Assembly: GCA_016235455.1 (NCBI GenBank)
Contig: JACRKZ010000031.1
Coordinates: forward strand, 1 to 64,000
Source of the DNA: Armatimonadota bacterium
GTDB lineage: Bacteria; Armatimonadota; UBA10988
Length of the DNA stretch: 64,000 nt
Reading direction: 5' to 3'
Part shown: one piece after another, positions 39,794-61,980 of the stretch
How positions within the stretch are numbered: the stretch's first letter is position 1
How the letters are laid out: each line of letters begins with the position of its first letter
Notes under the pieces: generated by a model
What the model was told of the DNA's origin: nothing
The model's database searches: none
Seen by the model: only the letters and a program-made list of their open reading frames with translations
Made by a program: the position numbers and the translations under genes

Positions 39794-39822
39794 TTGTCAT
39801 TGCGGCGCGCCTCTGCTATACT
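39794..39822 (+). promoter_or_regulatory. Strong sigma70 promoter of rpsA (TTGTCA-N17-TATACT, extended TG)
   Basis: -35 at 39794-39799, -10 at 39817-39822. Confidence 0.8.
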
Positions 39823-39851
39823 CGGCGCCACGCGGATGGGCCACCAGTGGA

Positions 39852-39948
39852 CTACCAGAACATGCTCGTACGGCGGAAACCCGCCACCCTCGCCTGACAC
39901 CACGCCTCTCAGGGGTTGCTGTCGCTATGAGGGTCACGAGTCTGGTAG
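39852..39948 (+). ncRNA. Candidate structured 5' leader of rpsA
   Basis: Nested pairings CTACCAGA/TCTGGTAG, CTCGT/ACGAG, ACCCTC/GAGGGT, plus the hairpin GGCGG-AAAC-CCGCC. Confidence 0.5.
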
Positions 39949-39991
39949 AAAGCGGAATCAAGCTGCCGCAACATCGGACAGGTGAGCAGGC

Positions 39992-42022: not shown

Positions 42023-45000
42023 ATGCGTGTGAGGCGATCGAGCCTGGGTTGGAGCGTTCTGCTCCTGGTGTCGCTGGTGACGGCCGTCGCCGCGAAGACG
42101 TCGCATGAGTTCGTGGGGGCCCAGGGCCCGGCGTTCATGCGGGCGCAACTGCGCCAGGCCGGCTCTCGGCAGGTGGCGCCCACGGCCGACCACAACATCA
42201 CCCAGAGTGCCTCGGACAACATCGATCCCGTGTGGTCGCCCGACGGTACCCGTGTGGCCTTCGCCTCCAACCGCGCCGGCAGTTACGATATCTACATCGC
42301 TCGCTCGGACGGCTCGAATCCCGACACCGGCGCGCTGCTGACCCCCAAGCTGATCTCTGGCGTGGCCGGGGACGAGCGCTATCCCGCCTGGAACCCTGGT
42401 GGCCTGGACTTGGCCTACGTGCGCGGCAATGCCATCTACGTGCGCAACCTGCGCACCATGGCCGAGATCCAGCTGATCGACCAGCTCACCAACATCCAAG
42501 GCCTGACCTACAGCCCGGATGGTTCGCGCCTGGTCTTCTCCGCCCGCCTGGCCGGTGACTCCGATCTCAACCTGTACTGGGTGACCACTGACCCGCAATC
42601 CACCGACCCGGCCACCGGCAAGCCCCAGATGGTGCAGATCACCAATGCGGCGGGCAACGAAGTTCAGCCGAGCTGGTTCCCGAACTCCGACGCCGCGGAC
42701 GGGCGCCAAGTCATCTTCTCGTCGAACGCCAACGGCGACTACGACTTGTACCGCGTGACGCCGCCGACGGTCGGTGGTGCGCCGGTCGCCCTCACCGCGG
42801 CCAACCGCGTGCTGGGCAATGGCGGTGACGGTGACCAGTCGTATCCCTCTTGGGTGCGACCGGGCGGCTCTCGCGACGCCAGCTACGACCAGCCCTACTA
42901 CCTGCTGTATGCGGACAACGGCAACGGCAACTACGATCTGCGGGTCGTCGACGCCGACCTCGTGCCCGCGTCGGCGGTCGTGTACCAGGGCGCCGGCGAC
43001 CAGATTCAGCCGGTCGCATGCCCCATCCAGGACACAACCCACAATGCCTGCGTCTATTCGGGCAAGAAGACCGGCATCACCACGAACCAGCTGTTCGTGA
43101 TCGACATCTTCGACAACTCAGCGCCAATTCTGGGCGACGGCATCACCACCTCGCTGCCGTCGGTGAGCCCGCAACGCGGCTTCCCCGGCTCGACGGTCAC
43201 CATCACGGCCAAGGTCTACGACAAGGGCAGTGGCGTGGCTCCGGCGCCGATCGACTATGACGGCGACACCATCCCGGACTCTGGCGTGTGGGCCATCGTG
43301 CGCGTCGCTGACCGCCCGGTCTTCGCCAGGTGGACGACGGGCAGCACGGAAGTCCAGCCCAACCACATCAGCAACACCGTCTGGGCGCACGTTTCGAACA
43401 ACCAGATCGAGACCGACCAGGAGATTGTGGACATCCCGACCACCAGGCTGTCGGGGAACCTGACCACGGTACAGCCCAACGACCCCACCGAACTCGGGGC
43501 GGCCATCACTGGCCCGGGTGTCGCCTACCGTTTCACCACGCTGGATGCCATGTCCTTTGTGAACCGCGTCGGCCTGCCGTTGCGGGACGACGGTACGCAA
43601 GGCGACGCGGTGGCTGGGGATGGCATCTACACCGGCACCTGGCTGACCCCGGCGGAATCCCACGACTACTATGTGGACGTCGTGCCGGTCGATACCCGGG
43701 GCAACGCACCGGTGGACCCCGATCTGGGCATGGACGGTCTCGGCCGCACGAACCCGCTCGAAACCACATACCGCTACCCCGATGGTATTGCGACCTGCAT
43801 GGGGCCGTGGGCCATCGGCTATGACCACGTGGCGGGTTTCACCACTCGGCAACTGGACATCACGCGCAAGATTCTGCTCGTCAGCGACTACGGCTGCGGC
43901 CAGAAGTTCCAGGCCGCGGACTTCGCCACGACCGCCTCCGCGGCGCTGAGCCGCTACTGGCCGGTCGCGCTGCCAACAGAACACTATTGGTTCACCGATG
44001 ATGACGTGGCCGGCGCTGAGTCGATGACCGCCGCGCCGGTGATCACCTTCGGCAGCGGGGTCTCGGGCGTGCAGCGCACCATCGGCCCGAACCCCACGGT
44101 TTCAGCCGGCACACAAGTGCCAGACGGCCCCTGGTCGTGCGGCCCCTTCGCCCAGCTCAACGGCGGCGGCCAGCCCTTCGGCGGGCCGCAGGACGTTGAC
44201 CAGGTCGCCATCTGGCGGGTGCTCTGCCGCGGCCCGCTGGACGCTGGCACGCTCAACGCCTATACGCCAGCTCCGCTGGCCGCCGTTGAGGGCAGTCCCG
44301 TCCCGGCTCAGAACGGCGACCATATGGTCGTCTTCTCCAGCCCCTACACCGGCGATGTCTACGCGCAGCCAGGGACGCTCCTCGACGCCTCGACGCAAGC
44401 GCTGCTGCGTTCCTTCGTGGCCGCCGGCGGGCGCTTGGTCGTCAGCGGCATGGACATCGCCTGGGCGCTGACCAAGAACGGCACGCAGGCGAGTCCGTTC
44501 CTGCAGGATGTGCTCAAGGCGACGTTCATCTCGGATGCCACCCCGGGCGCGGTCAACTCACCGATCAGCGGCTATGACTCGGGCCGCACCCGCATGACAC
44601 CCCCGGATGCGCAGGGCGGCGTCGAGCCGCAGCTCTTCCAGTTCGGCGGCAGTCCGGTCGCTGCATCCATGACCGGGCGTCCGATGAACGCGGACGGGGG
44701 CGTCCCCGGCAACCTGGCCCTGCTGCGGATCAACGGCGGCGGCGACACACAGGGCGGCTGGCCTTTCTCGGGCGACGGCTGCCCGAACGCGTTCTTCATT
44801 GACAATGTCAGCCCCACTGGTGGCGGCCTGTCCACCTTTGACTACGCCGGCGGAGACGGCTCGGCCGCGGTCCGTTACATCGACCCGACAACCGGCTCGC
44901 GCGTGGTCTACTTCGCCTTCGGCCTGGAGTCGCTGCGGGCGGACTTCATCCTCCACGACCACAACCCCGCCCCCTACGTCGTCCATGGCATGGAGCATCG

Positions 45001-47452
45001 GGTCCGCCTGATGACCAACCTGAGCGACTACCTGCGCACGGGTGGCCTGCGCGGCAAGGTGGTCGACACGGACTCCTTGACCCCCATGGCCGGCATCACG
45101 GTCATCGCGCGCCGCGGCACGGGCACCAACGGCACCATCATGGGCCGGACCACCACGCTGTCCGACGGCACGTACCTCCTGGAAGGCCTGACGGTCGGCG
45201 ACTACGCGCTGTTCGTCCAGTCGGCGGAGTACACCGCCGACCACCGTCCGGTGCAGCGCGTCTACGGCGGCCAGGTCAGCCAGAACTCCGACCTGACCAT
45301 GCGCCTGCTGCGCTTTGAAACCTCCGCGCTGTACGGCACGGTGACCGGCCCGACCGGCACACCGGTGTCCGGCGCCACGGTCATTGCGTCGCTGGCCACG
45401 GCCGGCGCCAACCCGATGCAGGTGAGCACCACCACCGACACGGTCGGACAATACTCGTTGTCCGTGCCCAGCGGCACCTACACGCTGACCGCCAGCGCGG
45501 CGGGCTTCGCCTCGGCCACGCGCACCGACATCATCGTCGTGGCCGGCGCCGACCAGAAGCAGGACCTGCAACTCACGGCTTCACCGGGCGTGCTCACGGG
45601 CACGATCACCGGTAACGGCGCCGGTGTGGGCGGCGCCACCGTGGTGGCGACCAGCGGGGGCGTGACGGTCGGCAGCACCACCACCGCGGCGGATGGCACC
45701 TACACCATGTCCATCGCCGCCGGCACCTATGATCTGGTGGTCACGGCGCCCGGCTATCAGCAGGGCCGTAAGGCGGCCGTTGTGGTCACCAGCAGCGCCA
45801 CGACCACGGCCAATCTGGCCCTGACGGCGGTGGCGCCCGGCAGCATTGCCGGCCTGATCACCGTCCAGGGCTCCAACCAGGCGGTGGGCGGTGTCACGGT
45901 GTCCCTGCTGGCGGGCGGCGCGACGGTGCGCAGCACCACATCGGCTAGCACCACGACCACGCAGGGCGGCGTTACCTACAACTGGAAGATCGACGACGTG
46001 CCGGCCGGTCTATACGACGTGCGGGTGCAGGCGCCGGGCTACAACGCCCAGACCACCACGTCGGTGACGGTGACCAGCAACCAGTTGACGTCGGGCATCG
46101 ACTTCACGCTGCAGCCGCTGCACGTGTTCATCTCGTCGCTGTCCATGGCCTCGACGCCGTTCGACTACAGCACCTCGGCGCCCGACGCGCAGACGCTGAT
46201 CGACGACGACAACAATGCGGCCACCCCGCTCAAGATGGCGGCCTACAACACCGCCACGGCGGCCTACGCGTACTATCCGAACGCACCGGGCAGGACCTTC
46301 ACGCTGGGTCGCGGCTACTTCCTGAAGCTGGCCAACAACGCGGCACTGACCCGCGAAGGCGTCCGCGCGGCGACCACGGGCAGCGGCTACGATGTGCCTC
46401 TGCTCAACGGCTGGAACCTGATCGGCGCCGTCTACGAGTTCCCGGTTGATCTGTTCTCCTGCCAGGTGATCCTGGAGGTGAACGGTGCCGGCTCGACGGT
46501 CTACTCCTTCCAGGAGGCCGTGGCTCGCGGTCTGGTCGGTGGATCCATGTACACGCTGAACTTCGGTGTGTACCAGCAGGTCTACCGCTTCGACCCGTAT
46601 ACGGGCTACTGGCTGCGCGGCTACGTGCCGTCGGCGGCCACGACGCTCAAGCTGCGCGTCCCGCCGACGCCGCTGGGTGGTTCGTCCAACCGCGGCCGGA
46701 GCGCCGCGACGCCCACCGACTGGAAGGCGAGCATCGTCGCCAAGACCACGGACGGCGTGGCCTCACAGGCCACCTTCGGCGTGGGCGGCAACTCGGCTAC
46801 GGTGTACGACGGCGCGGACCGAGCCCAACCGCCGGCGCCGCCCGTGGCTGCTCAGTGGCTGGAGCTGGGCTTCCCGCACGCGGACTGGGGTCGCTACTCG
46901 GGGTCGTACCAGAGCGACATCCGTAGCGCGAGCCGCAGCCTGCGCTGGGAACTGGAGCTCAAGGGCGCCAAGCCGGGCCAGATGGTCAGCCTGAGCTGGC
47001 CGGAGCTGGGCGCCAACATACCGGGCAACCTGAGGGTCATCCTGGAGGACCTGCAGACGGGTGTGCGGCGCTCGCTGCGCCACACCAGCGGCTACACGGT
47101 CCGCGCCGACGGTAGTGCGCGGCGGCTGGCCATCATCGTCGAGCCGGCGGACAACCGCCCGGCGGTGACATCGCTGGCCTACACGGCGAGCCGCGCCGTG
47201 GGCGGCCAGGTGCACTTTACGCTCACCGCGGACCTGACTACCAACGTGGTGGTGCGTGGTCTGAACGGTGCGCTGGTCAAGACGCTGCTGCGCGATGAGG
47301 TGCTGACCGCCGGGCCCCAAGTGGTGGTCTGGGACGGCACCGACGACAGCGGCCGCGTGGCCCCCGACGGCACGTATCGACTCGAAGTGGTCGCCGTGGG
47401 CGACACGGGTGAGCAGGTACGGGCCACGACAACGGTTCGACAGCAGCGCTGA
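42023..47452 (+). CDS. Large secreted protein: PD40/TolB-like propeller, choice-of-anchor-X-like, carboxypeptidase-regulatory-like repeats, shared C-terminal module with FlgD-like Ig domain
   Basis: Signal peptide; PVWSPDGTRVAFASNR; LRDDGTQGDAVAGDGIYTG; four G.V......GA.V...T...G.Y...V..GTY repeats; terminal WDGTDDSGRVAPDGTY. Confidence 0.85.
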   Translation: MRVRRSSLGWSVLLLVSLVTAVAAKTSHEFVGAQGPAFMRAQLRQAGSRQVAPTADHNITQSASDNIDPVWSPDGTRVAFASNRAGSYDIYIARSDGSNPDTGALLTPKLISGVAGDERYPAWNPGGLDLAYVRGNAIYVRNLRTMAEIQLIDQLTNIQGLTYSPDGSRLVFSARLAGDSDLNLYWVTTDPQSTDPATGKPQMVQITNAAGNEVQPSWFPNSDAADGRQVIFSSNANGDYDLYRVTPPTVGGAPVALTAANRVLGNGGDGDQSYPSWVRPGGSRDASYDQPYYLLYADNGNGNYDLRVVDADLVPASAVVYQGAGDQIQPVACPIQDTTHNACVYSGKKTGITTNQLFVIDIFDNSAPILGDGITTSLPSVSPQRGFPGSTVTITAKVYDKGSGVAPAPIDYDGDTIPDSGVWAIVRVADRPVFARWTTGSTEVQPNHISNTVWAHVSNNQIETDQEIVDIPTTRLSGNLTTVQPNDPTELGAAITGPGVAYRFTTLDAMSFVNRVGLPLRDDGTQGDAVAGDGIYTGTWLTPAESHDYYVDVVPVDTRGNAPVDPDLGMDGLGRTNPLETTYRYPDGIATCMGPWAIGYDHVAGFTTRQLDITRKILLVSDYGCGQKFQAADFATTASAALSRYWPVALPTEHYWFTDDDVAGAESMTAAPVITFGSGVSGVQRTIGPNPTVSAGTQVPDGPWSCGPFAQLNGGGQPFGGPQDVDQVAIWRVLCRGPLDAGTLNAYTPAPLAAVEGSPVPAQNGDHMVVFSSPYTGDVYAQPGTLLDASTQALLRSFVAAGGRLVVSGMDIAWALTKNGTQASPFLQDVLKATFISDATPGAVNSPISGYDSGRTRMTPPDAQGGVEPQLFQFGGSPVAASMTGRPMNADGGVPGNLALLRINGGGDTQGGWPFSGDGCPNAFFIDNVSPTGGGLSTFDYAGGDGSAAVRYIDPTTGSRVVYFAFGLESLRADFILHDHNPAPYVVHGMEHRVRLMTNLSDYLRTGGLRGKVVDTDSLTPMAGITVIARRGTGTNGTIMGRTTTLSDGTYLLEGLTVGDYALFVQSAEYTADHRPVQRVYGGQVSQNSDLTMRLLRFETSALYGTVTGPTGTPVSGATVIASLATAGANPMQVSTTTDTVGQYSLSVPSGTYTLTASAAGFASATRTDIIVVAGADQKQDLQLTASPGVLTGTITGNGAGVGGATVVATSGGVTVGSTTTAADGTYTMSIAAGTYDLVVTAPGYQQGRKAAVVVTSSATTTANLALTAVAPGSIAGLITVQGSNQAVGGVTVSLLAGGATVRSTTSASTTTTQGGVTYNWKIDDVPAGLYDVRVQAPGYNAQTTTSVTVTSNQLTSGIDFTLQPLHVFISSLSMASTPFDYSTSAPDAQTLIDDDNNAATPLKMAAYNTATAAYAYYPNAPGRTFTLGRGYFLKLANNAALTREGVRAATTGSGYDVPLLNGWNLIGAVYEFPVDLFSCQVILEVNGAGSTVYSFQEAVARGLVGGSMYTLNFGVYQQVYRFDPYTGYWLRGYVPSAATTLKLRVPPTPLGGSSNRGRSAATPTDWKASIVAKTTDGVASQATFGVGGNSATVYDGADRAQPPAPPVAAQWLELGFPHADWGRYSGSYQSDIRSASRSLRWELELKGAKPGQMVSLSWPELGANIPGNLRVILEDLQTGVRRSLRHTSGYTVRADGSARRLAIIVEPADNRPAVTSLAYTASRAVGGQVHFTLTADLTTNVVVRGLNGALVKTLLRDEVLTAGPQVVVWDGTDDSGRVAPDGTYRLEVVAVGDTGEQVRATTTVRQQR

Positions 47453-47542
47453 CGCGCTGCCTGAAGGAAGCGAGCCGGGCCTGCCGAAATGGCTGGCGCG
47501 GGTCGCGGCGGAAGACTGAGCGAAGCTGCGAGGGAGTCTGAC

Positions 47543-49603
47543 ATGAGACTGGTCAAGCGATTGCGGCGGCATCCGCTGACTCGCCCACTGGCGTGGGCGG
47601 TGCAGCTTGCGCTGCTGGCAAGCACCGGCGTGCTGGCGCCGCCGGCGGCGGCACAGGATATCGAGGCGAAGCGCGCGGTAGTGCTGGACTTCGGCAACCT
47701 GGCCACGGCCTCGCCGTTGGCTGGCGACGAGGCGGCCGCAGCCTTGAGCTTGGCTCTGGTGCAGCGTCGCTACGAAGTCACGCCGCGCAGTGAGGTGCAA
47801 ACGCGCCTCAAGGCGATTGGCGTGCGCGCGCCGTTCGAGCCTGACGAGATCAAGCTCATCAAGAACGACCTCGACATTCGCGACCTGTACTCCGGCAGCG
47901 TGATCAGCGTGGACGAGAAGATCGGCGCCAAGTCCTCGGTCGAAGTGCTGCTGCGCGTCGAAGTCTACGACGGCGACACCGGCGACATGGTCAACGGTGG
48001 CTACGGCAAGGGCTTCGAGGTGCTGAACAGCGCCAACATCGCCGACCGTGAAGCTGGTTTGGCCAGCGCCATCGAGCGCGCCGTCGCGCAGGCCTTGACC
48101 CGCATCGATGCCCGCACCCTGATCCACGCCGCGGTCATGTCCTACGCCCCGCCGAACCGCGTGCTGATCAACAAGGGTCGCAAGCAAGGCGTGCTGGAAG
48201 GCATGGAGTTCAACGTCTTCCGCACCAAGGCCGATCCCGAAAACCCGAACCGCTCCCTCACGGTGAAGGTCGGCCGCGTCCGGGTGCATGAGGCGTCGAA
48301 CGACGATGCCACGGCCTCGGTCATCGAGATGACCCAGGGCATCAATACGCACGACGAGTTGCGCGAGGTCTTCCGCCTGCCGTCCATCTCCGCCAGTCAG
48401 GCGCAGTCAGGCAACCTGCCTGACCTGGGTCGGGCTCCGGCGCGCGGTGGCGCGGGCAACGGTGCGTGGCTAGCGCCCGTGGCTGGCGTCGTGGCCGGCA
48501 TCGGCCTGCTCGGCCTGCTAGTCGTGTTGGCCGGCACTTCGACCAGTGACTCGCCGTCGGCGCAGGCCACCGGGGCTTACCTCCGCCAGGCCGCGCCGGG
48601 CCAGAACCCGTCCGTGGAGGTGGCCTGGGGCGATCGCAACTACGCGCCGCCCAAGCGCTTCATTGGCGGCTACCTGCTGTACCGTGGCATCTCGCAGTCG
48701 TTCGCGGCGCTGACCGGCGACGCGGTGGGAGCGGTGCCTGGCGCCAACCAGCGCAAGTGGGCGGACGACCCGACCTGGGTGGACGTGACCACCACGATTC
48801 CGCTGCGCTACGAGCGCATCACCGCCACAGACGTGGAAGTGGTTGAGACGACGCTGGATGTGCGCATCGTGCACCAATCGCCGCAGCCGGGCAAGACCTA
48901 CTACTACAAGGTCCGGCGCCTCGGTCCGCCGATGGCGGCGACGGCACCGACCGTGTTCGCGCGCACCGCGACGGGTGGCAACCTGTCGTCACGGCTGAAC
49001 AGCCGCTCGGCGCAGATGCGCCAGGCCTCCGCCGGTCGCGTGCTGCGCAGTGGTGGCAACGTGCACATCTCGCGCGTTGGCCTGCCCATGATCACCCATC
49101 GCCAGGTGACCAGCATCGATCCGGGCGCGAACTACGACGCGACGCTCGACCCCACCGTCGACAATGACATCGTCATCGACACCGACATGGGTCTGTCCGA
49201 CGCGACGGTGGCCATGGGCCCGGTGACCTACATGGTGCCGCCGGACCTGTTGGCGCCGTCGAACAACAACATGGCCCAGCGCGTGGACGACATCGGCTTC
49301 TCGTGGCAGGGCGTTCTGGGCGCCACGCAGTACGTCGTGCAGATCGCCACGGATGCCGACTTCTCGGCCTTGGCGTTCTCCAGCGCGGCGATCGCGACGA
49401 CCTCCACCGGGCAGTTGTCGTTCCGCTACGACAGCACGGCGGCGGGCTACCGCGCGCTGGCGGCGAACACACAGTACTTCTGGCGAGTAGGCGCGAAGTC
49501 CACCTTCGGCGGTCAGCGGGCGCCCGAGCCCAACGGCTTCGTCTTCAGCCAGGTCTATACGTTCCAGACCGCGGACCAGCCGCCCAGCAACCCGCGCCGC
49601 TGA
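47543..49603 (+). CDS. Secreted CsgG/FlgT-like protein with internal hydrophobic helix and FN3-like domains
   Basis: Signal peptide to AAA-Q; AVVLDFGN alpha/beta domain; VLINKGRKQGV..GMEF.VFR..VGRVRV (FlgT-C-like); helix WLAPVAGVVAGIGLLGLLVVLA; PGKTYYYKV and ANTQYFWRVGA. Confidence 0.7.
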   Translation: MRLVKRLRRHPLTRPLAWAVQLALLASTGVLAPPAAAQDIEAKRAVVLDFGNLATASPLAGDEAAAALSLALVQRRYEVTPRSEVQTRLKAIGVRAPFEPDEIKLIKNDLDIRDLYSGSVISVDEKIGAKSSVEVLLRVEVYDGDTGDMVNGGYGKGFEVLNSANIADREAGLASAIERAVAQALTRIDARTLIHAAVMSYAPPNRVLINKGRKQGVLEGMEFNVFRTKADPENPNRSLTVKVGRVRVHEASNDDATASVIEMTQGINTHDELREVFRLPSISASQAQSGNLPDLGRAPARGGAGNGAWLAPVAGVVAGIGLLGLLVVLAGTSTSDSPSAQATGAYLRQAAPGQNPSVEVAWGDRNYAPPKRFIGGYLLYRGISQSFAALTGDAVGAVPGANQRKWADDPTWVDVTTTIPLRYERITATDVEVVETTLDVRIVHQSPQPGKTYYYKVRRLGPPMAATAPTVFARTATGGNLSSRLNSRSAQMRQASAGRVLRSGGNVHISRVGLPMITHRQVTSIDPGANYDATLDPTVDNDIVIDTDMGLSDATVAMGPVTYMVPPDLLAPSNNNMAQRVDDIGFSWQGVLGATQYVVQIATDADFSALAFSSAAIATTSTGQLSFRYDSTAAGYRALAANTQYFWRVGAKSTFGGQRAPEPNGFVFSQVYTFQTADQPPSNPRR

Positions 49604-49635
49604 GGACTGTCTAGGGCTTGGAGAGGAGCGCAGGC

Positions 49636-52600: not shown

Positions 52601-52713
52601 GCGATGCCAACGGTCGACCGGTGCCCAACGGCATCTACGTGTTGCAGGTGGTCGCGACGGGCGCGGACGGGTCCTTGGCTCGAGAGCTTCGCACGGTTCG
52701 CGTGATGCGGTAG
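49636..52713 (+). CDS. Secreted clostripain (C11)-like pseudoprotease with shared C-terminal module and FlgD-like Ig domain
   Basis: WTVLVYLNGD, VNVVVQWDR, GEVDMG, FPARHYALIL; His/Cys positions read SGPG and DTG; terminal WDGCDANGRPVPNGIY. Confidence 0.8.
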   Translation: MRKALFWLMAATVMVVARPGAAQTTADWTVLVYLNGDSTVRYEDASIRVFNALEQIGSTQAVNVVVQWDRGPGDDVLTAANPADATQAWATTRRYLVVADPAQTGLTPDTLTAAATRIASPALVDLGEVDMGQQASLVDFYTWTAARFPARHYALILSGPGTGWQPRSQHRGMLFDTTTVSTGPTDPSAFLTNAELTGALTAIKSQRSGLNLDALLCDTGGSATVEVATQATGLVDSYLGEFLDRNGNGGLNYDTLVSSLNTALPLTAATVQTWLGSVATTYLGSYGTGTARLGGAQSVTAGVYRMGNLPSLVTACDDLAKALDADLLTTAPGLFRVLSTVQRGRPADFSGDYIDLKHFAELCQTEFAATQTIVDAATALISAVTAVQAGDVTAASAATDIDVSNFNGVAVYFPGELAAYDSNYPTGCDFGQTEWPTLIQGLYTLYSDRNPPVITLITPTNGTTILENPPTIQVSIVDPDAIGGVNADSVSLTFDGVVVPKANYSFSSETGVLTYTPANALGATSHTFIVGASDLSGNAATPTTGNFRISVATLSTGIQTFSLPRLLTAAQNDPGLVFGASNFAMARWVPGLSGSDKYRLYPDSYASFLPPDCSTSVSNPVVTRAPAGLGYWVRVKQSRPLQTLPGTPVTLSEYGIRLLTDGSSPNWNMVANPYDTPAISLASAFIQLVDGRRLTFRQAIDQRYTPGVLFSYVPNESNANAPGRYDFSDAGAGQLIRLQAHWLKVNTACSLVVQSGLSSRAAVPSASARALPRDGWSLALWATADSKANAYSDGRAYEAKDRLVLGQSSDAQNGYDHALDVAGPPAMPGGVALRAVHGDWGLESGRYVRDYRAAGMSTEWDVEVAAPAGEVSLTWPDLRAVPGDIDLVLTDLTNGQSRALRTTASYGFTHSGGPRAFRVTAQRRNGAGLLVTNVTTQSGRGGDSVDIGYTLSRAASVHVQVTSLSGRSLRSLGPVDSATGRGRLAWDGCDANGRPVPNGIYVLQVVATGADGSLARELRTVRVMR

Positions 52714-52714
52714 G

Positions 52715-55612
52715 ATGGTAAGCATGAAACGGCCCAAGCACACAATCCTGGCCCTGTTCGCCTGCCTGGCTGTGGCTGGCTCGGTCTCGGCGCAGACCTA
52801 CCAGACCATCAGCGGGACAGCGACGAACTCGCAGCCCGGGACGTTGTTCTCCACCGTGCGCAACAACTACCTCCAGGTGGACGTGCGCGTGCCGGGCATC
52901 GTGCCCGTGGTCAATCCCGGAGGCACGACGGGTCCCACGCTCGTTGGCTACAGCAACTACCGTGGTGGCCGGGCCTGGATCAGCACCGTGCAAGGCGATC
53001 CGTTCACCGCCAACGACAACGGTGTGCGCATCGCCGGGCCGACCGCCTACTCGACATGGTGCGGGGTGCAGTTGCAGGATCTGCCCACGCCGGCCGATGA
53101 CACGCCGGCGATTGAGTACCATGAGTGCGAGACCAGCTACGAGCCGGTGAACAATCCGAACCAGGACATCTTCTCGCAGTACCCGACGGCGAGCAACGAT
53201 GAGGTCCGGTTTGCCTGGCAGATCCGCAAGGACCTGCCCTCGCTGACAACCATCCACGCCAACCCAAACGTGGCCACCAACGGTGGTCTGGCGGGCGTGA
53301 ACTCCGCTGTGCAGTGCCTCGTGTCGCAGTCCTATCGGCTGGTCGGCGACAAGGTTCGCGTCGAGATGCTGGTCCAGAACGTCAGCAATGCCAGCGTGCG
53401 CATCGGCGGGCACATCTACATCAACCCGACCTTTGGCAGCGGCGTGCGCAACGGTGATCGGTTCCACTTCCAAGGCGTCAAGCAGACCATCGACCACGAA
53501 ATTACATTCCCCTCGACCAATGCCGCGGACGACCCGTCGTTGCGTCGCATCCCCACCTTCTACCGTACCTTCGACGATGAAGCCGCCCCGTCGGTCATTC
53601 TGGGTGGCCTGTTCGACGGCGCCGACATCCGGACGACGGCGTTGAGCGCCGGCCCGCCCACGAGCGCCATGCTGGTCGACCAGAACCTGATCACAGGCAA
53701 CTGGTTCGCCTACACGCCGGCGTCGGGCAGCCTGATCGGCGCCAACTTTGGCATCATGCTGCGCTGGGCTCCGACCTTGGTCGCCCCCAACTCGGGACGT
53801 CGGTTCATCACCTACTACGGCCTGGGCGGCACGGATGCCGACTACGACCAGCCGTACATCTTGTCCGCCGAGGCGCCGTTCAGCCTGTCGCTGGCCAATG
53901 GCGACGACCCCAACACCACCTTGGTGGAGACCAGCGACAATGTGTACCGGGCGCCGAACCCGTTCACCGTTCGCGCCTCCGTCTTCAACACCTCGGATCG
54001 GGCCATCAGCAATGTGGCCGTGGCGCTGTCGCTGCCGGCCGGCATGAGCCTGGCCAGCGCCGGAGACACGCTCAGCAAGTCCATTGGGCTCGTTCCCGCG
54101 AGGTCCGAGCAGGTGGTGAGTTGGCAGGTCAAGACGACATCGACCCTCGAGCCGGGCGTGCGGACAGTGTCCGTGTCGTCTTCCGGCACCAGCCTGACAT
54201 CGAAGATCGTGGACCGCGAGATCGGCATTCCGGCGCTGCCGCAACTGCTCTTCCCGAACGTCGCCAGGCGACTGGACATGATCTCGGTGCCCTACGATTT
54301 TGCCAACCGCGACATCCAGCACGTGCTCAACTCGTTGGGCACGGTCGGAGTGACCGGCGGCGGCAACGCGGCGGTAGCTCGCTACAATGCCGCGGCGCGC
54401 TCGTACGGGTACTTCCCGGATCCCTATATCACCAGTGTGGTCCCGGGCGAAGGCTTCTGGCTCTTCAATGGCGCTCTGACAGACCTGCGGCTGCCCACCG
54501 ACAAGGCCCAGTTGCCGCTGGCGCAGTCGGTGTCGGTGGCGCTGAGTACCGGCTGGAACCAGATCGGCTGCCCATTCACGGTGCCGGCACGGCTGTATGA
54601 CTGCGAAGTGGTGGGCAGCGACGGCATCGTCCGCAGCTTCCTCGATGCGGTCGGCGCGGGCCAGGTCAAGCCTGTCGTCTACGAGTACCAGCCCAACGAC
54701 CTGAACCCCACGGCCCAGGGCAGTTATCTGTTCGCCGGCGATGACGCCACCATGCTCAACCCGTGGCGCGGGTACTGGCTGCGTTCGCTGACGGACGTGA
54801 ACCTGGTCTTCAACGCCAACTCCCTGGTCGGACCGTTCCGCTCCAGCGGTCGCAGCCCATTGGCGCTGCGCGGCGGTTGGGAGTGCGCGCTGTCCGCTGA
54901 CTCGCCCAACACGGGCAAGCGCCCGGTGCGCCTGGGCTGCGATAGCACCTCGCTGGATGGCTACGACAGCCGCGACGTTGAGGCGCCGCCCACGCTGCGC
55001 TCCGAGGGCGACCTGCGCCTCTCGGTGCTGCGTGAGGACTGGGGTCGCGACGCCGGCCGCTACATGCGTGATATCCAGTCGGGCACTCGAGCGCAGACGC
55101 GATGGCGCCTGCTGGCCGAGTGTGACCGGGCCAACGAGGACGTGACGCTGCGGTGGAACCTGCGGACGGTGCCGGCCGATGTGCAGCTCACTTTGGTCGA
55201 CCTGGAGACGGGGGCCCAGCGGCACTTGCGCACGACCTCGGCCTTCAGCTACAACACAGGTGCGACGCCGCGGCCGCGGCTGTTCGAGGTGATTGCCACC
55301 AAGGGCGGCGGCCAGGGGCTCAGCATCCCATTCATGCAGGTGGCTGGCACGCGCGGTCGCGCGGTGACCGTGGCTTTCGGCCTGACCTCGGCCGCGACGG
55401 TCGACGTTGTGATCGAAAGCCCGACCGGGCGACGGGTGAAGCTGGTTGCTGCATCAATGGCTGCCACGGAAGGTCAAAACAGTGTATCCTGGGACGGCCT
55501 TGACGAAGGGGGCCGCCCGGTGCCTGCTGGGATGTACCGTTGCCGGGTGCTGGTTTCGACGCCGGATGGCCAACGGGCCATCGCTGAGCGTCTGGTGCGG
55601 ATTGGCCGGTAA
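52715..55612 (+). CDS. Secreted protein with shared C-terminal module and FlgD-like Ig domain
   Basis: Signal peptide; Ig-like middle region; GWNQIG.P, GYWLR, WGRDAGRY.RDI; terminal WDGLDEGGRPVPAGMY. Confidence 0.8.
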   Translation: MVSMKRPKHTILALFACLAVAGSVSAQTYQTISGTATNSQPGTLFSTVRNNYLQVDVRVPGIVPVVNPGGTTGPTLVGYSNYRGGRAWISTVQGDPFTANDNGVRIAGPTAYSTWCGVQLQDLPTPADDTPAIEYHECETSYEPVNNPNQDIFSQYPTASNDEVRFAWQIRKDLPSLTTIHANPNVATNGGLAGVNSAVQCLVSQSYRLVGDKVRVEMLVQNVSNASVRIGGHIYINPTFGSGVRNGDRFHFQGVKQTIDHEITFPSTNAADDPSLRRIPTFYRTFDDEAAPSVILGGLFDGADIRTTALSAGPPTSAMLVDQNLITGNWFAYTPASGSLIGANFGIMLRWAPTLVAPNSGRRFITYYGLGGTDADYDQPYILSAEAPFSLSLANGDDPNTTLVETSDNVYRAPNPFTVRASVFNTSDRAISNVAVALSLPAGMSLASAGDTLSKSIGLVPARSEQVVSWQVKTTSTLEPGVRTVSVSSSGTSLTSKIVDREIGIPALPQLLFPNVARRLDMISVPYDFANRDIQHVLNSLGTVGVTGGGNAAVARYNAAARSYGYFPDPYITSVVPGEGFWLFNGALTDLRLPTDKAQLPLAQSVSVALSTGWNQIGCPFTVPARLYDCEVVGSDGIVRSFLDAVGAGQVKPVVYEYQPNDLNPTAQGSYLFAGDDATMLNPWRGYWLRSLTDVNLVFNANSLVGPFRSSGRSPLALRGGWECALSADSPNTGKRPVRLGCDSTSLDGYDSRDVEAPPTLRSEGDLRLSVLREDWGRDAGRYMRDIQSGTRAQTRWRLLAECDRANEDVTLRWNLRTVPADVQLTLVDLETGAQRHLRTTSAFSYNTGATPRPRLFEVIATKGGGQGLSIPFMQVAGTRGRAVTVAFGLTSAATVDVVIESPTGRRVKLVAASMAATEGQNSVSWDGLDEGGRPVPAGMYRCRVLVSTPDGQRAIAERLVRIGR

Positions 55613-55639
55613 TCAAGGATGAAGCGGAAGGACGGTCGC

Positions 55640-58600
55640 ATGATGAAGCGCTTTCTCGAGTCGCCCCTGGCGCGGCGCATCGCCTGGATGACCCTGACGG
55701 CACTGGCGGTCGGGTTGATAGGTCCGGCCGCACAGCGCGCCGACGCGCAAGAGGCGGTTCGCGGCGCCTACTTCGTGCCGTTCACGGCGGCCGAAGGCGT
55801 GGATGCTGAGACCCCCGTGCGCATTGGCAACGGCACCGCCGAACTGCTGCAGCGCATGAGCGGAGACCCGCGAGCGAAGCAGCCTTTGGCTGTGCTGCCG
55901 GTGGTTCCGGCGCTGGATGGCCATGCGTCTCTGAGCCCCAGCAACCCGATCGTCAAGCGCGCTCTGAGTGAGTCGGCGATCACCCAGGAGGAAGTCGACA
56001 GTCCTCCGACCGCCGCCGAGCCGGCAGCCGCTCTGTGCCGCAAACTCGGCCTCGGCTATGTCATTACCGGCAACATCGACCGCTACAAGGAAGGCCCCGG
56101 CGCGGACGGCAAGAGCCAGGTCGCCGAGCTGTCCTACACGGTCAAGCTGACCGAGGTGCTGCCCGAGGGTGCCGTGGCGCAGCCCCGGACCGTGCCGATC
56201 AGCGGCGTCAGCAAGTACACGGCGACCACCGACAAAGACAAGATCATCCTCCGGGCCATCCTGACCGACCGTGTCTCCCGCGAGATCGTCTCTCAGCTCA
56301 TTGAGTTGCCGGAACTGGCGCCTGAGCCCCAGACCGAGGTGCAGGTCAAGCCCAAGCCGGCCAAGGGCAGCAACGCCTGGGCCTATGCGGGCGTCGTGGT
56401 GGCGGGCATCGCCTCCATCTTCCTGATCTCCACCATCGGCGGCGGCAAGACCAAGGCACCGGCCAACCTGGCGGTGACGGGCGTGGCCGCGGTATCCGAA
56501 CAGGACGCGGTACGCATCACCTGGCTCCAGGCGCCGGCGGCGATCGGTTACAACGTGTATCGTCGACAGGTAGGCAGCCAGCCGTTGGTGTCGAGGGCCC
56601 TCCGCGGGCGCACCACGGCTGACGGCTTCACCGTGTTGCCCAATCCGCAGACCAACAGTGTGCCGACCGTGGTTGGCGGCAACCGGACCTCCTTCATCGA
56701 CACCACGGCCGTCAGCGGCGTGGTGTATGAGTACGCCGTGGCGGGCATGAACGCCAGCAACGTGCTTGGTGCTCGCTCCAGCTCCACGACGGCGGCCCGC
56801 ACGGGCGCCAACATCGGCGCCGCGCCGCAGTTGACGGCCTCGGCCGGCAACGGCTTCGTCTCCCTGAACTGGAGCGCCAGCAGCGCCTTTGTGACCGGCT
56901 ACTTCGTGTACCGGCGCCAGGGCGGCGTGCCCGACACCGTGACCGCGGCCGACCGCGTAGCCACGGTGACCGGCCGCACGACGTTCGACGACACGCCGTT
57001 GACCAACGGGGTGGAGTACACCTACGTGGTGCAGCCGTACACGCAGATCGGTACCGGCCAGAAGTTGATCGGCACGGACAGCAACCGCGTGACGATCGCG
57101 CCGATGGCTGGCGCGCCGCCGCAGGCCCCGCGCGGGGTGGCGGCCGTGGCCAGCAACCTCGGTGTGGTGACGGTCTCGTGGCAGTTCAACGCCGAGCCGG
57201 TGGCCTCCTATGAGGTGCTCCGACTGCGTGAAGCCACGACCCGGCAGCGCACGGTGACCGGCAGTTCCTCGTGGCTGCGTGGTCTACCCGTGGACTTGGC
57301 GGCGCGCGCGCAGACCGTACGCGTCGACCCGCGTCGGTCGCGCCAGATCGACCTCACTGGCTACAGTGTGGTGGGCAGTGTGCCCAGCACGCAGAACAGC
57401 TTCGTTGAAGGGCCTCTGCCCGACGGGCTCTACACCTACGCAGTACGCGCGGTGAGCAGCACCGGCGTGCGCGGCCCGGTGGGCGTGAGCACGGCGCTGA
57501 CGGTCTCGTCGCCGCCGGCGGCTCCGGCCGGAGTGACCGCTACTGGTCAGTCCGGGGCGGTGCTGGTAGCCTGGCAGAGCGCTGCCGGCAACGTGAGCGC
57601 CTATCGCGTCTACCGTAGTCTGACGGCCATCACCGCGTCGATGACCGGCCCCGCCACGGCGCCGGGCATCTCCCGCGTGACCGAAGTCAATCCGAGCGTC
57701 ACGTCGTTCAGCGACACCGGCGTCACCAACAATACCGTGTACTACTACGCGGTGACGGCGGTGGGCCAGGGCGGCACGGAGAGCCTGTTCGGCAAGGGCA
57801 CGGCGACCACGACCGGTGCGGTGGGCGTGCCCCACGCGGCGCCGGCCACGATGACGCTGGCCACCGACCGGCCGCTCATCTCGGCCAACGGCATGCACAC
57901 GGCGGCCATCACGGCCACCGTGCAGGACCTGAGCAGTATCGCGGTGCCGGGTGTCGAGGTCATCGTCACGGCGGACCGTGGCAGCTTCAAGGCGCCCCTG
58001 CCGGCCAACGCCAGCTACGTCGACGCCACGAAGCGTCAGGTTCGCTCGCTGACGGACGCCACGGGCAAGGTTGTGCTGAACTTCATGTCGGAAGTCATCA
58101 CGACTGCCGCGACGCAGGTGGTGGCCAATATCCAGGCCCGCGCCGCGGAGCTTCCGGTAGCGCAGCAACTGCAGTCGACCAGCGTGGCGATGCAGTCGTC
58201 CGCGCCGAGTGTGCTGCTCATGAGCCCCGCGCTGGTGTCGCTGACGGCCGACCAAGCTTCCACCCAGACGGTGGCGGCACGGGTCCTGGACAGCCTGAAC
58301 CAGCCGGTGCCTGACGGCACGTTCTCGGTGGACTTCAGCCTCAGCGCCGACAACGGCGAGTTGCGTCAGTCGGGCGACGTGCAGACCTATCCGTTCCAGC
58401 GCTACCCGACCACCATCACGGTGCCGGTGACCACCGGTCGAGCGACCATGGTGTACCGCGCCGGCCCGGCCAGCGGCACGTTGCAGATCAACGCGGCGGT
58501 GGCGGGTCTGCCCGCCGTAGCCTCGTCGGCGACGGTCCGGCTGTCGGCTGGTGAAGCGACGCAGGTGTCGTTCAGCCAGACCGGCACGACGCTGAACCAG

Positions 58601-58858
58601 TTGAACGTGCCGGTCAGCGGCTCGCAGGCCATCACGGTTGACGTGCGCGACGCGCAAGGCAACCGGGTGGGCGCGGGTGTGGCCGTGCAGTTGGCTGTGG
58701 AGCCGACGGGTGTGGTCACGATCCCGGCCTCCGGCGTGACCGACGCCAATGGCCAGGTTGCCCTGAACATCACCGGCGGCGCAGTCGTCGGCGATGCGAT
58801 CATCACGGCAACCGCCGGCACGTCGGCGGAAGGCCAGTTGGCAGTCCATGTGCGCTAG
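55640..58858 (+). CDS. Secreted protein: CsgG-like N-domain, internal hydrophobic helix, about 4 FN3 and about 3 invasin-type Big_1 domains
   Basis: LCRKLGLGYVITGNI; helix AWAYAGVVVAGIASIFLISTI; FN3 motifs (GYNVYRR, F.DT.V.N.T.YYYAVTAV); Big_1 motifs (ISANG...AITATVQD, VRDAQGN.V, TDANGQV). Alternative start 55619. Confidence 0.75.
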   Translation: MMKRFLESPLARRIAWMTLTALAVGLIGPAAQRADAQEAVRGAYFVPFTAAEGVDAETPVRIGNGTAELLQRMSGDPRAKQPLAVLPVVPALDGHASLSPSNPIVKRALSESAITQEEVDSPPTAAEPAAALCRKLGLGYVITGNIDRYKEGPGADGKSQVAELSYTVKLTEVLPEGAVAQPRTVPISGVSKYTATTDKDKIILRAILTDRVSREIVSQLIELPELAPEPQTEVQVKPKPAKGSNAWAYAGVVVAGIASIFLISTIGGGKTKAPANLAVTGVAAVSEQDAVRITWLQAPAAIGYNVYRRQVGSQPLVSRALRGRTTADGFTVLPNPQTNSVPTVVGGNRTSFIDTTAVSGVVYEYAVAGMNASNVLGARSSSTTAARTGANIGAAPQLTASAGNGFVSLNWSASSAFVTGYFVYRRQGGVPDTVTAADRVATVTGRTTFDDTPLTNGVEYTYVVQPYTQIGTGQKLIGTDSNRVTIAPMAGAPPQAPRGVAAVASNLGVVTVSWQFNAEPVASYEVLRLREATTRQRTVTGSSSWLRGLPVDLAARAQTVRVDPRRSRQIDLTGYSVVGSVPSTQNSFVEGPLPDGLYTYAVRAVSSTGVRGPVGVSTALTVSSPPAAPAGVTATGQSGAVLVAWQSAAGNVSAYRVYRSLTAITASMTGPATAPGISRVTEVNPSVTSFSDTGVTNNTVYYYAVTAVGQGGTESLFGKGTATTTGAVGVPHAAPATMTLATDRPLISANGMHTAAITATVQDLSSIAVPGVEVIVTADRGSFKAPLPANASYVDATKRQVRSLTDATGKVVLNFMSEVITTAATQVVANIQARAAELPVAQQLQSTSVAMQSSAPSVLLMSPALVSLTADQASTQTVAARVLDSLNQPVPDGTFSVDFSLSADNGELRQSGDVQTYPFQRYPTTITVPVTTGRATMVYRAGPASGTLQINAAVAGLPAVASSATVRLSAGEATQVSFSQTGTTLNQLNVPVSGSQAITVDVRDAQGNRVGAGVAVQLAVEPTGVVTIPASGVTDANGQVALNITGGAVVGDAIITATAGTSAEGQLAVHVR

Positions 58859-59058
58859 CCGCGGTGGCTAGCGACCAGAGCGCCGGGCCTCGGTTCACCG
58901 AGTCCCGGCGTTCGTGGTTTGTGTCGCCGAGTCGAGGGCGCACACCCTCTGGCGCGGAGCGCGGCGGGAAGGTACAATTCGGTGGGCGGCCAAGGTCGCT
59001 CATGCTGCCTGGCCCACCTGATGATGGTGCCGCTGGGCAGGGGTGGAGAGGCGGCTTG

Positions 59059-61056
59059 GTGCGACGCTGGCGCGTCACATATCTGGTAACGTGGCTAGCC
59101 CTGCTGGCGTGTGGCGCGGCAACGGGCGCCACCATTGACCTTATGGCCAGCCCCAGCCGTGTCCCCGCGGATGGCGTGAGTACCATCACGCTTTCGGCCA
59201 CTGTGCGTGAAGGCACCAGCCTGGTGGAGGCGCCGGTGGCCGTGCTGTTCAACACCACGGCCGGCGAGTTGTCGCCTCTGGGCGGGGCCCGCGGCAACGG
59301 CCAGCAATTGCGCGTGATGACCCAGGGCGGTCGCGCGCAGGCGACCCTGCGGGCGACCACTTACGAGACCTCCGCGCTCGTCACAGCGGCGCTGATCGAC
59401 CAGGCCAACGCGACCACGGCTCAGCGCACTGTGACATTCGGGTCGAGCGGCACCAAGCAGGTCTTCTACGACAACATCATCAAGGTGACGGGCGCCTATC
59501 TGGCCTACTACCCGGAAGGCTCGATGATGGTCATGGAGGTGCTTGGCGATGCCGCGGTCTCGTACCAAGGCGTCGAGATCCGGGCCTCGCGGCTGCACTT
59601 GGATGTGCGCGAAGACATCCTGGTCGCGCGCGACTTCCAGGGCCGGGTGAGCATCGGGCATGGTGCGCCGCCGTACAAGAGCGATCGCAAGAACGAAGCC
59701 GCACCTTACTTCGGCGACGCGCTGGTGCTCGACATGCGCACTTTCACCGGCGCCATCTTCAGCACGCAGAGCGGGCAGACCACGCACTTTACGGGACGCG
59801 AACTGAGGAAGACGCCGGCGGTGGAGTTGCCGACGGACGCCTTCGACCTGTACGACGTGAGCGGCGCGAAGTTGCAGATCAGGGCGCGGCGGGCGGTCGT
59901 CTACCCCAATGAGAAGATCCGCTTCGACCAGCCCAAGTTCTACATGGGCGACAAGAAGATTCTGTCCCTGCCGTACTACTTCGAGCCGTTGGGCTATTCG
60001 GCCATGGGCGGCGGCGGCTTTGCGCAGTTCGTCAACTACAGCTCGCAGGACGGCCTGCTGGTCAACTTCCCCTACTACTTCGACATGGGCGATCGCTCGA
60101 CGAACGAAGTGACGCTGTCGCGGGGCGAACGGTCGGGCGTGTTCGCGCGGCAGAATGGTTGGCAGGTGTACTACCGCCACCACGCCGACTTGCCGCAGAA
60201 CAAGGGCGACTGGGACTTCACGATCGACCAGATCGGGACGCAGTTTGGCGTGACCTATCAGCGCAACCAGCGGTTTGGCAGCAATTCATACAGCTCTTTC
60301 TCGCTGACCTGGCCAGAGCACCGCAACCTTTACTCGAATGCGAACCTCTATACCACCATAGGACCGGGTACGCTGAGCGCGACGGGCAATCTGGACAACC
60401 TGCTCGGCCCCGGCGGCGGAATCAGTAACAACCTGAATGTGGTGTGGCAGAGCTTCCCGATGCGCGTCAAAGCCATCGACTCGCGTTTCTCGGTGGCCCT
60501 GGGCACCGGGTTCAGCCATTCGCTGAGCCAGCAGGACCTATGGCGCCAAAGCGTGTCGCTGAGCTGGGACCACGATGCCTGGAACTTCGGGCCCAAGGCG
60601 TCGCTGGTGCCGTATGCGGGTCTGCGCTACCAGAACACCATCAATGGAGGCCAGGAGACCGCATTTACGTTCAACACGACGTACCGGCAGGACCTGGCCG
60701 AGGGCATGACGCTGGGGCTGGGTTACACGTTCGACAAGGCGTGGAACTCGCAGTACAAGGTGCCCGACCGGCATGTGTTCTCGCTGGACTGGCAGATGAC
60801 CAAGACCAAGCTGCGCGGTTACGCGTATGCCAACTACAACCTGGTGGACCAGGCACTATCGGCCTCGGTGTTGTTCGACTACACGCTGTCGCGCAACTGG
60901 GGCCTGCAGGCGCAGACCATCTACCAGAGCAGCTCGCTGGGCTCGTTCAGCGAGACGGAGCTGTGGGCGTACCGCATGTTGGGCGGTCGCGAACTGCGCT
61001 TGCGTTATAATCTGGAACGCGGTAGGATCTTCTTCGAGATCGACAACCAATTCTGA
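59059..61056 (+). CDS. LptD-like outer-membrane protein with N-terminal Big_1 Ig domain
   Basis: GGAGAGG RBS with GTG; PSRVPADGVSTITLSATV (Big_1); beta-jellyroll motifs (YQGVEIRASRL, IRARRAVVYPNEKIRF...ILSLPYY); amphipathic strands; terminal Phe. Confidence 0.65.
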   Translation: MRRWRVTYLVTWLALLACGAATGATIDLMASPSRVPADGVSTITLSATVREGTSLVEAPVAVLFNTTAGELSPLGGARGNGQQLRVMTQGGRAQATLRATTYETSALVTAALIDQANATTAQRTVTFGSSGTKQVFYDNIIKVTGAYLAYYPEGSMMVMEVLGDAAVSYQGVEIRASRLHLDVREDILVARDFQGRVSIGHGAPPYKSDRKNEAAPYFGDALVLDMRTFTGAIFSTQSGQTTHFTGRELRKTPAVELPTDAFDLYDVSGAKLQIRARRAVVYPNEKIRFDQPKFYMGDKKILSLPYYFEPLGYSAMGGGGFAQFVNYSSQDGLLVNFPYYFDMGDRSTNEVTLSRGERSGVFARQNGWQVYYRHHADLPQNKGDWDFTIDQIGTQFGVTYQRNQRFGSNSYSSFSLTWPEHRNLYSNANLYTTIGPGTLSATGNLDNLLGPGGGISNNLNVVWQSFPMRVKAIDSRFSVALGTGFSHSLSQQDLWRQSVSLSWDHDAWNFGPKASLVPYAGLRYQNTINGGQETAFTFNTTYRQDLAEGMTLGLGYTFDKAWNSQYKVPDRHVFSLDWQMTKTKLRGYAYANYNLVDQALSASVLFDYTLSRNWGLQAQTIYQSSSLGSFSETELWAYRMLGGRELRLRYNLERGRIFFEIDNQF

Positions 61057-61069
61057 TGGGAGGGCTGTC

Positions 61070-61915
61070 ATGTCCAACCTGCGGCTGAAGCCGTGGCTCG
61101 TAGTATGTGGGTTGCTCGTCATGCCTTGGCGAGCGCAGGCGCAGGATACCTCCGGCGCTGGTTTCTTCCCGTTCCGGGGCAGTGCCCGGACGGCTGGTCT
61201 GGCGGGCGCCTTCACGGCTGTCGCGGACGACGTGGCTGGCCTGCAGTGGAACCCGGCCGGCATGACCCAGGTGGCCACGCGCCAGGCGGGTGTCAACTTC
61301 AAGGTCAACGGCGACGGTGGCGACTACCTCAACGTGTCGTACATCGAGCCGGTTCGCCAGGGCAAGTTCGGCGGCGGCTTCACCTACATCAACGCCACGG
61401 ACGGCGCTGGTCGGCGTGACAACGTCTTCCAGTTCACCTATGGCCAGGCGTTCACCAACGAGCTGTCGTTCGGCGCCAATCTGCGCTATCAGACGGCCGA
61501 CGCTGGCGCGACGACCGACCAGAACTTCTCGTTCGACTTCGGCCTGCTCTTCCGCCCCAAGCGCTACAAGCAGTGGGCTGTGGGCCTGACCGCGTTGGAC
61601 ATCAATGAGCCCAGCTTCACGGGCATCGGCCTGCAGAAGCGCATCTTCAACCTGGGCTTGGCTTACCACCCGGACGAGTACACCACGCTGGCCCTGGACT
61701 GGTACGACATCGGCTCGCTGGCCCATCGTGGCCAGGCGCGCTTCGGTGCCGAGCGCCAGGTGACCCGCAACATCGCGGTGCGCGCCGGTGTGGCGCAGGA
61801 CACCTTCGGCGTGGGTCTCTCGCTCATGTACAAGTACTTCACGTTCGACTACGGCTTCCAGCGCCTGTCTGGCGCGCCGGACATGAACATGATCAGCGTG
61901 ACCGCCAACTTCTGA
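61070..61915 (+). CDS. PorV/UPF0164-like (FadL-fold) outer-membrane beta-barrel
   Basis: Signal peptide, then SARTAGLAGAFTAVADDVAGLQWNPAGM (the A.R..GMG.AF.AVADD..A..WNPAG signature); FSFDFGLLF; terminal ISVTANF. Confidence 0.8.
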   Translation: MSNLRLKPWLVVCGLLVMPWRAQAQDTSGAGFFPFRGSARTAGLAGAFTAVADDVAGLQWNPAGMTQVATRQAGVNFKVNGDGGDYLNVSYIEPVRQGKFGGGFTYINATDGAGRRDNVFQFTYGQAFTNELSFGANLRYQTADAGATTDQNFSFDFGLLFRPKRYKQWAVGLTALDINEPSFTGIGLQKRIFNLGLAYHPDEYTTLALDWYDIGSLAHRGQARFGAERQVTRNIAVRAGVAQDTFGVGLSLMYKYFTFDYGFQRLSGAPDMNMISVTANF

Positions 61916-61938
61916 TCCTCAGATCAGGCGCGTGACGC

Positions 61939-61980
61939 GACCGGCGCGGTGCCCTTGGGCGCCGCGCCGGTCCTGCATTT
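61939..61980 (+). terminator. Terminator-like hairpin closing the 42-62 kb locus
   Basis: GACCGGCGCGGTGCCC-TT-GGGCGCCGCGCCGGTC (16-bp stem with one G-U pair) between convergent genes. Confidence 0.65.

Follow-up and report, generated by a model that had tools for sequence, protein, structure and literature searches.

The window analysed here is a 64,000-nt stretch of contig JACRKZ010000031.1 (assembly GCA_016235455.1), listed as contig C168 of a 6.5-Mb genome (G000) that is 93% complete and has a GC content of about 69%. The source organism is an Armatimonadota metagenome-assembled genome (MAG) of Fimbriimonadaceae-like affiliation. Seven open reading frames (ORFs) on the + strand, here named g1 to g7, occupy positions 42023–61915. 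We read them, with a probability of roughly 0.55, as a phylum-wide Armatimonadota outer-membrane cluster that is built around a divergent LptD (g6) and carries a new tail family, and not as a compact type IX secretion system (T9SS). Three of the products (g1, g3 and g4) are members of a family of Sec-exported Armatimonadota proteins, whose hallmark is a tail of about 400 residues that usually ends in arginine. The last gene, g7, is judging from its sequence best described as a PorV/PorQ-type barrel added in some lineages. A first-pass annotation of the same DNA had proposed a T9SS-analogous export system with FlgD-Ig sorting tails and a PorV-like shuttle. This interpretation was partly supported: the tail is a genome-wide module, found on 12 large secreted proteins, and the PorV-type shuttle did not hold up as an obligatory part, since g7 is patchy in its distribution.

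The g6 gene (59059..61056) encodes a probable LptD orthologue, in which a large barrel of about 26 strands is predicted behind a signal peptide, a Big_1 Ig domain and a beta-jellyroll. Its open frame begins at 58864 and the likely start is the GTG at 59059. A g6 profile built from 20 relatives found matches in 195 of the 201 genomes of the phylum, for the most part over the full length and in frames of 620–760 aa. The gene is single-copy in the window's genome and essentially single-copy across the phylum. With a broader profile of 40 rows, drawn from a search of representatives, the solved LptD structures 7omm_A (E = 1.5e-6, query positions 150–401) and 8h1r_A (1.4e-4) were matched, and the same profile matched the LptA chain 8onu_A at 5.8e-5. 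Single-sequence searches of the PDB with g6 returned nothing useful, and the Pfam scan of g6 gave a weak Big_1 match only. An AlphaFold2 model of g6 reached a predicted local distance difference test score of 81 and a predicted template modelling score of 0.57. DSSP analysis of this model delineated the Ig domain, a jellyroll-sized sheet region at residues 141–252 and about 25–27 long strands between residues 272 and 663. The genome furthermore holds LpxC and three LptF/G genes. Judged by its distribution, the profile matches, the LPS genes of the genome and the architecture of the model, g6 is most likely the phylum's divergent housekeeping LptD with an added Ig domain, rather than a dedicated protein channel. 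The earlier description of g6 as LptD-like is thus upheld by the remote match to solved LptD; its suggested role as an export channel is not, the gene being best read as a housekeeping one.

The likeness to the LptD/LptE translocon lies in the predicted jellyroll and barrel with the profile matches to LptD and LptA, in the near-universal presence of g6 in the phylum, and in the lipopolysaccharide (LPS) synthesis and Lpt inner-membrane genes of the genome. In contrast to that translocon, g6 carries an extra N-terminal Big_1 domain and lacks a Pfam LptD match, and no LptE family protein (PF04390) was found in the window's genome. The conserved upstream partner of g6 is instead a signal-peptide protein with a LpoB/PelC-like domain, which in the window's clade also has a hydrophobic helix and fn3/Big_1 arrays. 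The LpxC match on C52 (42612–43342) is broken into two pieces that lie in different frames and overlap, all within about 730 nt; this may reflect a frameshift or an assembly error in an essential LPS gene. Five proteins of 857–1016 aa (P0126, P0134, P0149, P0153 and P0186) matched the g6 profile at positions ~272–488 only; these may be longer relatives of the LptD type and form a bridge to canonical LptD.

A precedent for a LptD-type barrel in protein surface display comes from Borrelia burgdorferi. There, the LptD homologue BB0838 is reported to help flip surface lipoproteins (bioRxiv 10.1101/2022.12.21.521298). In contrast to Borrelia, which has no LPS and uses lipoprotein cargo, the genome studied here has an LPS pathway, and the tailed proteins show no lipobox in the N-termini that were read.

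The arrangement of the cluster was compared across the phylum. The order g1 to g7 was intact in two genomes of the same family (G004 and G005) at 44–61% identity, which bears out the expected synteny in relatives and indicates that the arrangement is not due to chance. Of 27 other loci that hold g6, 12 have tails nearby, 15 a g2-like gene, 13 a g5-like gene and 7 have g7. The recurring order in the phylum is a giant protein with a tail, a g2-like gene, a protease with a tail, a g4-like gene with a tail, a short g5-like gene and g6. This gene order is retained across many families at 20–30% identity. The N-terminal part of g1 has orthologues in the distant loci L041, L042, L048 and L049, and that of g4 in L039, L049 and L052. 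The position of g3 is filled by a S8 subtilase with a tail in L039, L041, L042 and L048, and by a C11-like protein in the window and in L049.

A second neighbourhood of tail and Lpt genes lies on contig C44 of the same genome. This locus (L058, 943–9533, - strand) encodes a 1049-aa tailed protein, a 395-aa CarboxypepD_reg protein, a 513-aa LptC+LptD_N (LptA-like) protein and a 345-aa protein. The succession of tail gene, 395-aa gene and LptC+LptA-like gene was kept in all four same-family genomes that were examined; in these (G001, G002, G004 and G005) the order is conserved from the tail gene to the 345-aa gene.

The tail itself was defined from g1, g3 and g4. Their N-termini look, by eye, like signal peptides, and each protein carries a FlgD_ig domain over the Pfam cut-off, 14–18 residues from the C-terminus. 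The shared C-terminal module that the first-pass annotation had noticed spans ~360–440 residues at 28–35% identity. The g1 product (42023..47452) is a secreted giant of 1809 aa with TolB-like PD40 repeats, four CarboxypepD_reg domains and a tail of ~400 aa (FlgD_ig at 1728–1792). The g3 product (49618..52713; 1031 aa) combines a signal peptide, a Big domain and the tail with a clostripain (C11)-like domain in which the His/Cys motif residues are missing. In g4 (52715..55612; 965 aa), the signal peptide is followed by an N-terminal region without family assignment and by the tail.

Across the window's genome, FlgD_ig occurs 17 times, and 12 of these occurrences lie 14–18 residues from the C-terminus of large ORFs. 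The 12 proteins have ~360–400 residues in common, beyond the Ig domain. A profile search of all six-frame ORFs recovered exactly 12 full tails, which gives 12 proteins as the genome-wide count of tail carriers. Within the phylum, the tail was found in 94 of 101 genomes (E<=1e-20) with 1–18 copies per genome. Several genomes have three or four tails only, three of them beside g6 (e.g. G027 and G040). Carriers include an S8 subtilase, a C11-like protein, a PD40 giant and Big_1 arrays; a subtilase and Ig-array proteins are among the 12 of the window's genome. One of the 12 tail genes (C35, locus L057:3-1897) is split over two frames just upstream of the tail, by a frameshift or an assembly error. 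Four paralogues of ~1080–1300 aa (on C50, C135, C147 and C91) have an internal FlgD_ig and a conserved C-terminus of another kind.

The tail comprises three parts, A, B and FlgD-Ig, with boundaries taken from a 40-row alignment alone. Part A contains the motifs GYW and GWNxIGxPF. Part B is a second beta-rich part; a PP motif and a 'VTLxWP' block mark the vicinity of its end. For both A and B, the only resemblance found was to unnamed clusters. Arginine is the very last residue in 34 of the 40 aligned tails, which suggests that a free C-terminus is recognised. As regards the earlier notion of FlgD-Ig sorting tails, the conserved unit is a three-part module and no 80-residue domain, and the model for type-A T9SS tails, TIGR04183, had no match in the window's genome, a weak negative because its control was silent in all 14 control genomes.

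Genes like g2 and g5 are the most frequent neighbours of g6. The g2 protein (47489..49603; 704 aa) has a signal peptide, a LpoB/PelC/CsgG-like N-domain, a hydrophobic helix at 331–349 and a C-terminal fn3-like region. The g5 protein (55619..58858; 1079 aa) likewise starts with a signal peptide; its N-domain is a paralogue of the g2 one, and a hydrophobic helix (255–273), fn3 repeats and Big_1/Invasin_D3 domains follow. In both, the signal-peptide-like N-terminus and the N-domain are followed by a strongly hydrophobic helix, and no lipobox is present. Iterative searching of the fetched loci linked the two N-domains as paralogues. A short g5-like gene (250–365 aa), directly upstream of g6, is the form seen in distant families. 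Pfam scans gave a sub-threshold FlgT_C match for g2 (23 bits, cut-off 27) and none for g5, where fn3, Big_1 and Invasin_D3 were matched instead; CsgG was matched by neither. Both had been labelled CsgG/FlgT-like proteins with FN3/Ig arrays; the fn3/Ig part of this description was borne out and the CsgG/FlgT part was not. That label was a weak lead and the weakest element of the earlier observation.

Other leads pointed to related folds. Atlas searches with g2 and g5 led to LpoB/CsgG clusters with scores of 0.81–0.88, and a weak LpoB match was seen in locus L039. A profile of the g5 N-domain weakly matched the chains 5t11_A and 5t10_A (~0.004) and the PelC chain 9h80_C (0.027). We take 5T10 and 5T11 to be PelC as well; the structure table labels both 'Uncharacterized protein'. 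Single-sequence PDB searches with g2 and g5 gave nothing useful. The Atlas leads, the L039 match and the g5 profile matches are consistent with the alpha/beta domain that PelC, LpoB and CsgG share. In contrast to PelC, a ring-forming lipoprotein of Pel polysaccharide export, g2 and g5 lack a lipobox and instead combine a signal peptide that looks cleavable with a hydrophobic helix further on, and the matches to PelC, LpoB and CsgG are marginal. Given the PelC/LpoB-like leads and the LptE that was not found, the N-domain of g5 and g2 is a candidate LptD partner.

Several results weigh against a tailed-protein cluster organised around LptD. The LptD homology of g6 is a 30-bit profile match that covers the jellyroll and reaches into the barrel's first part. 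The Pfam LptD family PF04453 had no match in g6, in the window's genome or in the 40 g6-family members scanned; among these 40, one weak LptD_N match and one weak OstA_2 match were seen. The LpoB/PelC-like assignment of the g2 and g5 N-domains is likewise marginal throughout. On a classical reading, the signal peptide and later transmembrane helix of g2 and g5 would leave their fn3/Ig arrays in the cytoplasm, which is a misfit with a surface role. Among the genes identified here, no translocon for the large tailed proteins was found, and these genes leave the crossing of the outer membrane unexplained. Finally, 15 of the 27 other g6 loci had no tail gene within the fetched stretch. The link between tail and LptD is therefore frequent and not universal, and it could be an inherited gene order without a functional tie.

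This last point belongs to a more ordinary explanation, which we regard as rather unlikely: lptD would stand beside secreted, S-layer-like envelope genes by inherited order, the tail would be an Ig-type stalk without a sorting role, and g7 would be a FadL-like small-molecule porin. Besides the 15 loci that lack a neighbouring tail, it is favoured by the 9 of 12 tailed genes found outside the cluster, of which eight were seen with no Lpt gene nearby, and by a partial, far sub-cut-off match of g1 to an anammox S-layer model. The weak Pfam matches of g7 to Toluene_X and TraF_2 point in the same direction. Against it speak the retention of gene order across many families despite low identity, the second, independent neighbourhood of tail and Lpt genes on C44, and the terminal arginine, which is more than a mere stalk would suggest.

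The second alternative concerns g7 (61070..61915), which encodes a 281-aa outer-membrane barrel of the PorV/PorQ family (FadL-like). NCBIfam scores stayed under the family cut-offs, with 54.5 bits for the PorV/PorQ model NF033709 (cut-off 90), 45.7 for PorQ (220) and 15.9 for PorV (250). A profile of the g7 family matched the PorV chain 6h3i_F at 2.7e-23, as compared to 3.4e-4 for 3dwo_X, ~3e-4 for 9hjm_F and 0.08 for TodX; this profile includes distant members that carry the PorV Pfam domain, which favours the PorV result. By these profile scores, g7 appears nearer to PorV than to FadL or TodX. The proposal of a PorV-like last gene was thus corroborated. It is the sole PorV-family match in the window's genome, and a search of genome contigs for related loci with g7 returned none.

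Under this alternative, a compact T9SS-analogous export and attachment system would use g7 to recognise the FlgD-Ig tails, with the LptD-like barrel or LpoB/CsgG-like rings as the channel. In the fullest version, g1 (propeller and tail) and g3 (clan CD peptidase-like domain and tail) would mirror PorZ and PorU. We consider the alternative as a whole unlikely. In its favour are the profile match of the genome's only PorV-family protein, the tail on twelve secreted proteins, and the spacing of g6 and g7, which are 13 nt apart and adjacent in seven other loci. The PorU/V/Q/Z attachment complexes join cargo to anionic LPS, according to two papers (PMC8545088, PMC12365241), and proximity to LptD would fit.

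Also in favour of this alternative, no canonical T9SS core was found in the window's genome. SprA/Sov (TIGR04189) gave no match over the cut-off, with only a 24.7-bit partial match on C41, and GldM gave none. For Peptidase_C25, a match of 21.7 bits on C75 stayed below the cut-off, and a PorU-specific model was not searched. As the controls for SprA, GldM, Peptidase_C25 and TIGR04183 were silent in all 14 control genomes, these four negatives are weak. The fifth search, for GldK, returned only sub-cut-off matches of the sulfatase-modifying type to its C-terminal half. The negative for a canonical T9SS applies to this 93%-complete genome, with GldL and GldN not searched and four of the five negatives weak. 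Among the best-ranked literature matches, no publication dealt with this locus, with PorV in Armatimonadota or with a T9SS of the phylum.

The distribution of g7 argues in the other direction. The two genes g7 and g6 are neighbours in the window's own family and in three others (f3, f10 and f17). When 20 loci on long contigs were picked from different families, g7 was beside g6 in none of them. As only 7 of the 27 other loci and 0 of these 20 have the pair, against tails in 94 of 101 genomes, g7 is not obligatory, and its candidacy as an obligatory tail partner was rejected on distribution. A quick and unfinished tree of g6 did not unite the eight rows that bear g7 in one clade; at least two changes were forced, and the deep branches were weak. 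The protein is also short, with 281 aa as compared to 402 aa in the matched PorV chain. In the T9SS, substrates bind the extracellular loops of the carrier, according to PMC10994853, and the shortness of g7 counts against such a role.

The g3 protein was considered as an active PorU-like sortase. Its Peptidase_C11 match (32.6 bits) is over the cut-off of 25.8, and a single-sequence PDB search with its N-domain gave nothing useful. We take HG and DAC to be the catalytic His and Cys motifs of clostripain-type peptidases. Both the His and the Cys are missing in g3, L015 and L017; the Armatimonadota clostripain relative P0251 keeps both motifs fully, and L049 keeps HG and the Cys as ETC. An active sortase was therefore rejected for this clade, which also counts against the T9SS-analogous alternative.

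Compared with the Bacteroidota T9SS attachment complex of PorV, PorQ, PorU and PorZ, the likeness consists of a PorV/PorQ-family barrel and of cargo-like proteins that are Sec-exported, have an Ig-like end and include proteases and a propeller protein. In contrast to that system, neither SprA nor GldM nor PorU was found here, the tail is far longer and fails the TIGR04183 model, and g7 is short and patchy in the phylum.

Under the preferred reading, a cluster around a divergent LptD, g6 would insert LPS. The N-domain of g5, and of g2, may act as a LptD partner in the form of a periplasmic ring or plug, replacing the LptE that was not found. The tail may serve in sorting or surface retention, docking its carriers close to or at the site of LPS insertion. 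The docked carriers would be the propeller giant, the protease or pseudo-protease, g4 and nine further proteins of this genome. g7 would be an accessory of the PorV/PorQ type, restricted to certain lineages, that may keep FlgD-Ig tails on the cell surface. Taken together, these steps would describe a phylum-specific surface display coupled to the LPS translocon: a divergent LptD with a PelC/LpoB-like ring or plug in place of LptE, a FlgD-Ig/Arg tail that targets large enzymes and adhesins, which are retained or linked to LPS, and a trimmed PorV/PorQ-type barrel that assists in some lineages. As a whole, this joint scheme appears improbable. By analogy, such a display system would resemble T9SS attachment in its logic, without the translocon or motor, in a phylum that we take to lie outside the Fibrobacteres–Chlorobi–Bacteroidetes (FCB) group.

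The setting of the cluster is as follows. The seven ORFs have a high third-position GC and are separated, from g1 to g7, by 36, 14, 1, 6, 200 and 13 nt, the 200-nt gap preceding g6 when counted from the GTG at 59059. A GC-rich hairpin (~61937..61972, + strand) lies between g7 and a convergent ABC-permease gene; it folds with -46.2 kcal/mol (z -4.4), and none of 200 shuffles folded as well. These data agree with the co-directional, tightly spaced genes closed by a strong hairpin that had been described at first sight. A consensus terminator scan called no T-tract terminator at this position, and the hairpin, lacking a T-tract, is therefore not called a terminator by that scan. Just upstream of the cluster lies the gene for ribosomal protein S1 (39992–41635), whose best relative is from a Fimbriimonadaceae MAG. 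Where relatives of g4, g6 and g7 carry a name, it is Armatimonadetes/Armatimonadota.

Further genes were noted elsewhere in the window. A rhomboid-family protease gene (35655–36470, - strand) and a gene for a S49 (SppA-like) signal-peptide peptidase (36543–37616, + strand) lie a few kb upstream of the cluster. A 637-aa ORF at 37706–39619 (- strand) has no Pfam match; the GC content of the window peaks here, with 76% in the 2-kb bin 38001–40000. The protein encoded at 26053–28107 (+ strand) has a CBM9_1 domain and a partial, sub-cut-off match to DUF5916 (20.4 versus 22.6 bits).

If the reading of g6 is true, it names the missing LptD of a little-studied diderm phylum and points to a partner other than LptE. 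The Arg-terminated, three-part tail is a large uncharacterised family that marks the likely surface proteome of Armatimonadota, with 12 proteins in this genome, proteases included. The repeated neighbourhood of tail and Lpt genes makes a connection of LPS export with protein display testable. Finally, a PorV/PorQ-type barrel co-occurs here with Ig-tailed proteins where no T9SS core was found, which bears on the origin of the T9SS attachment module.

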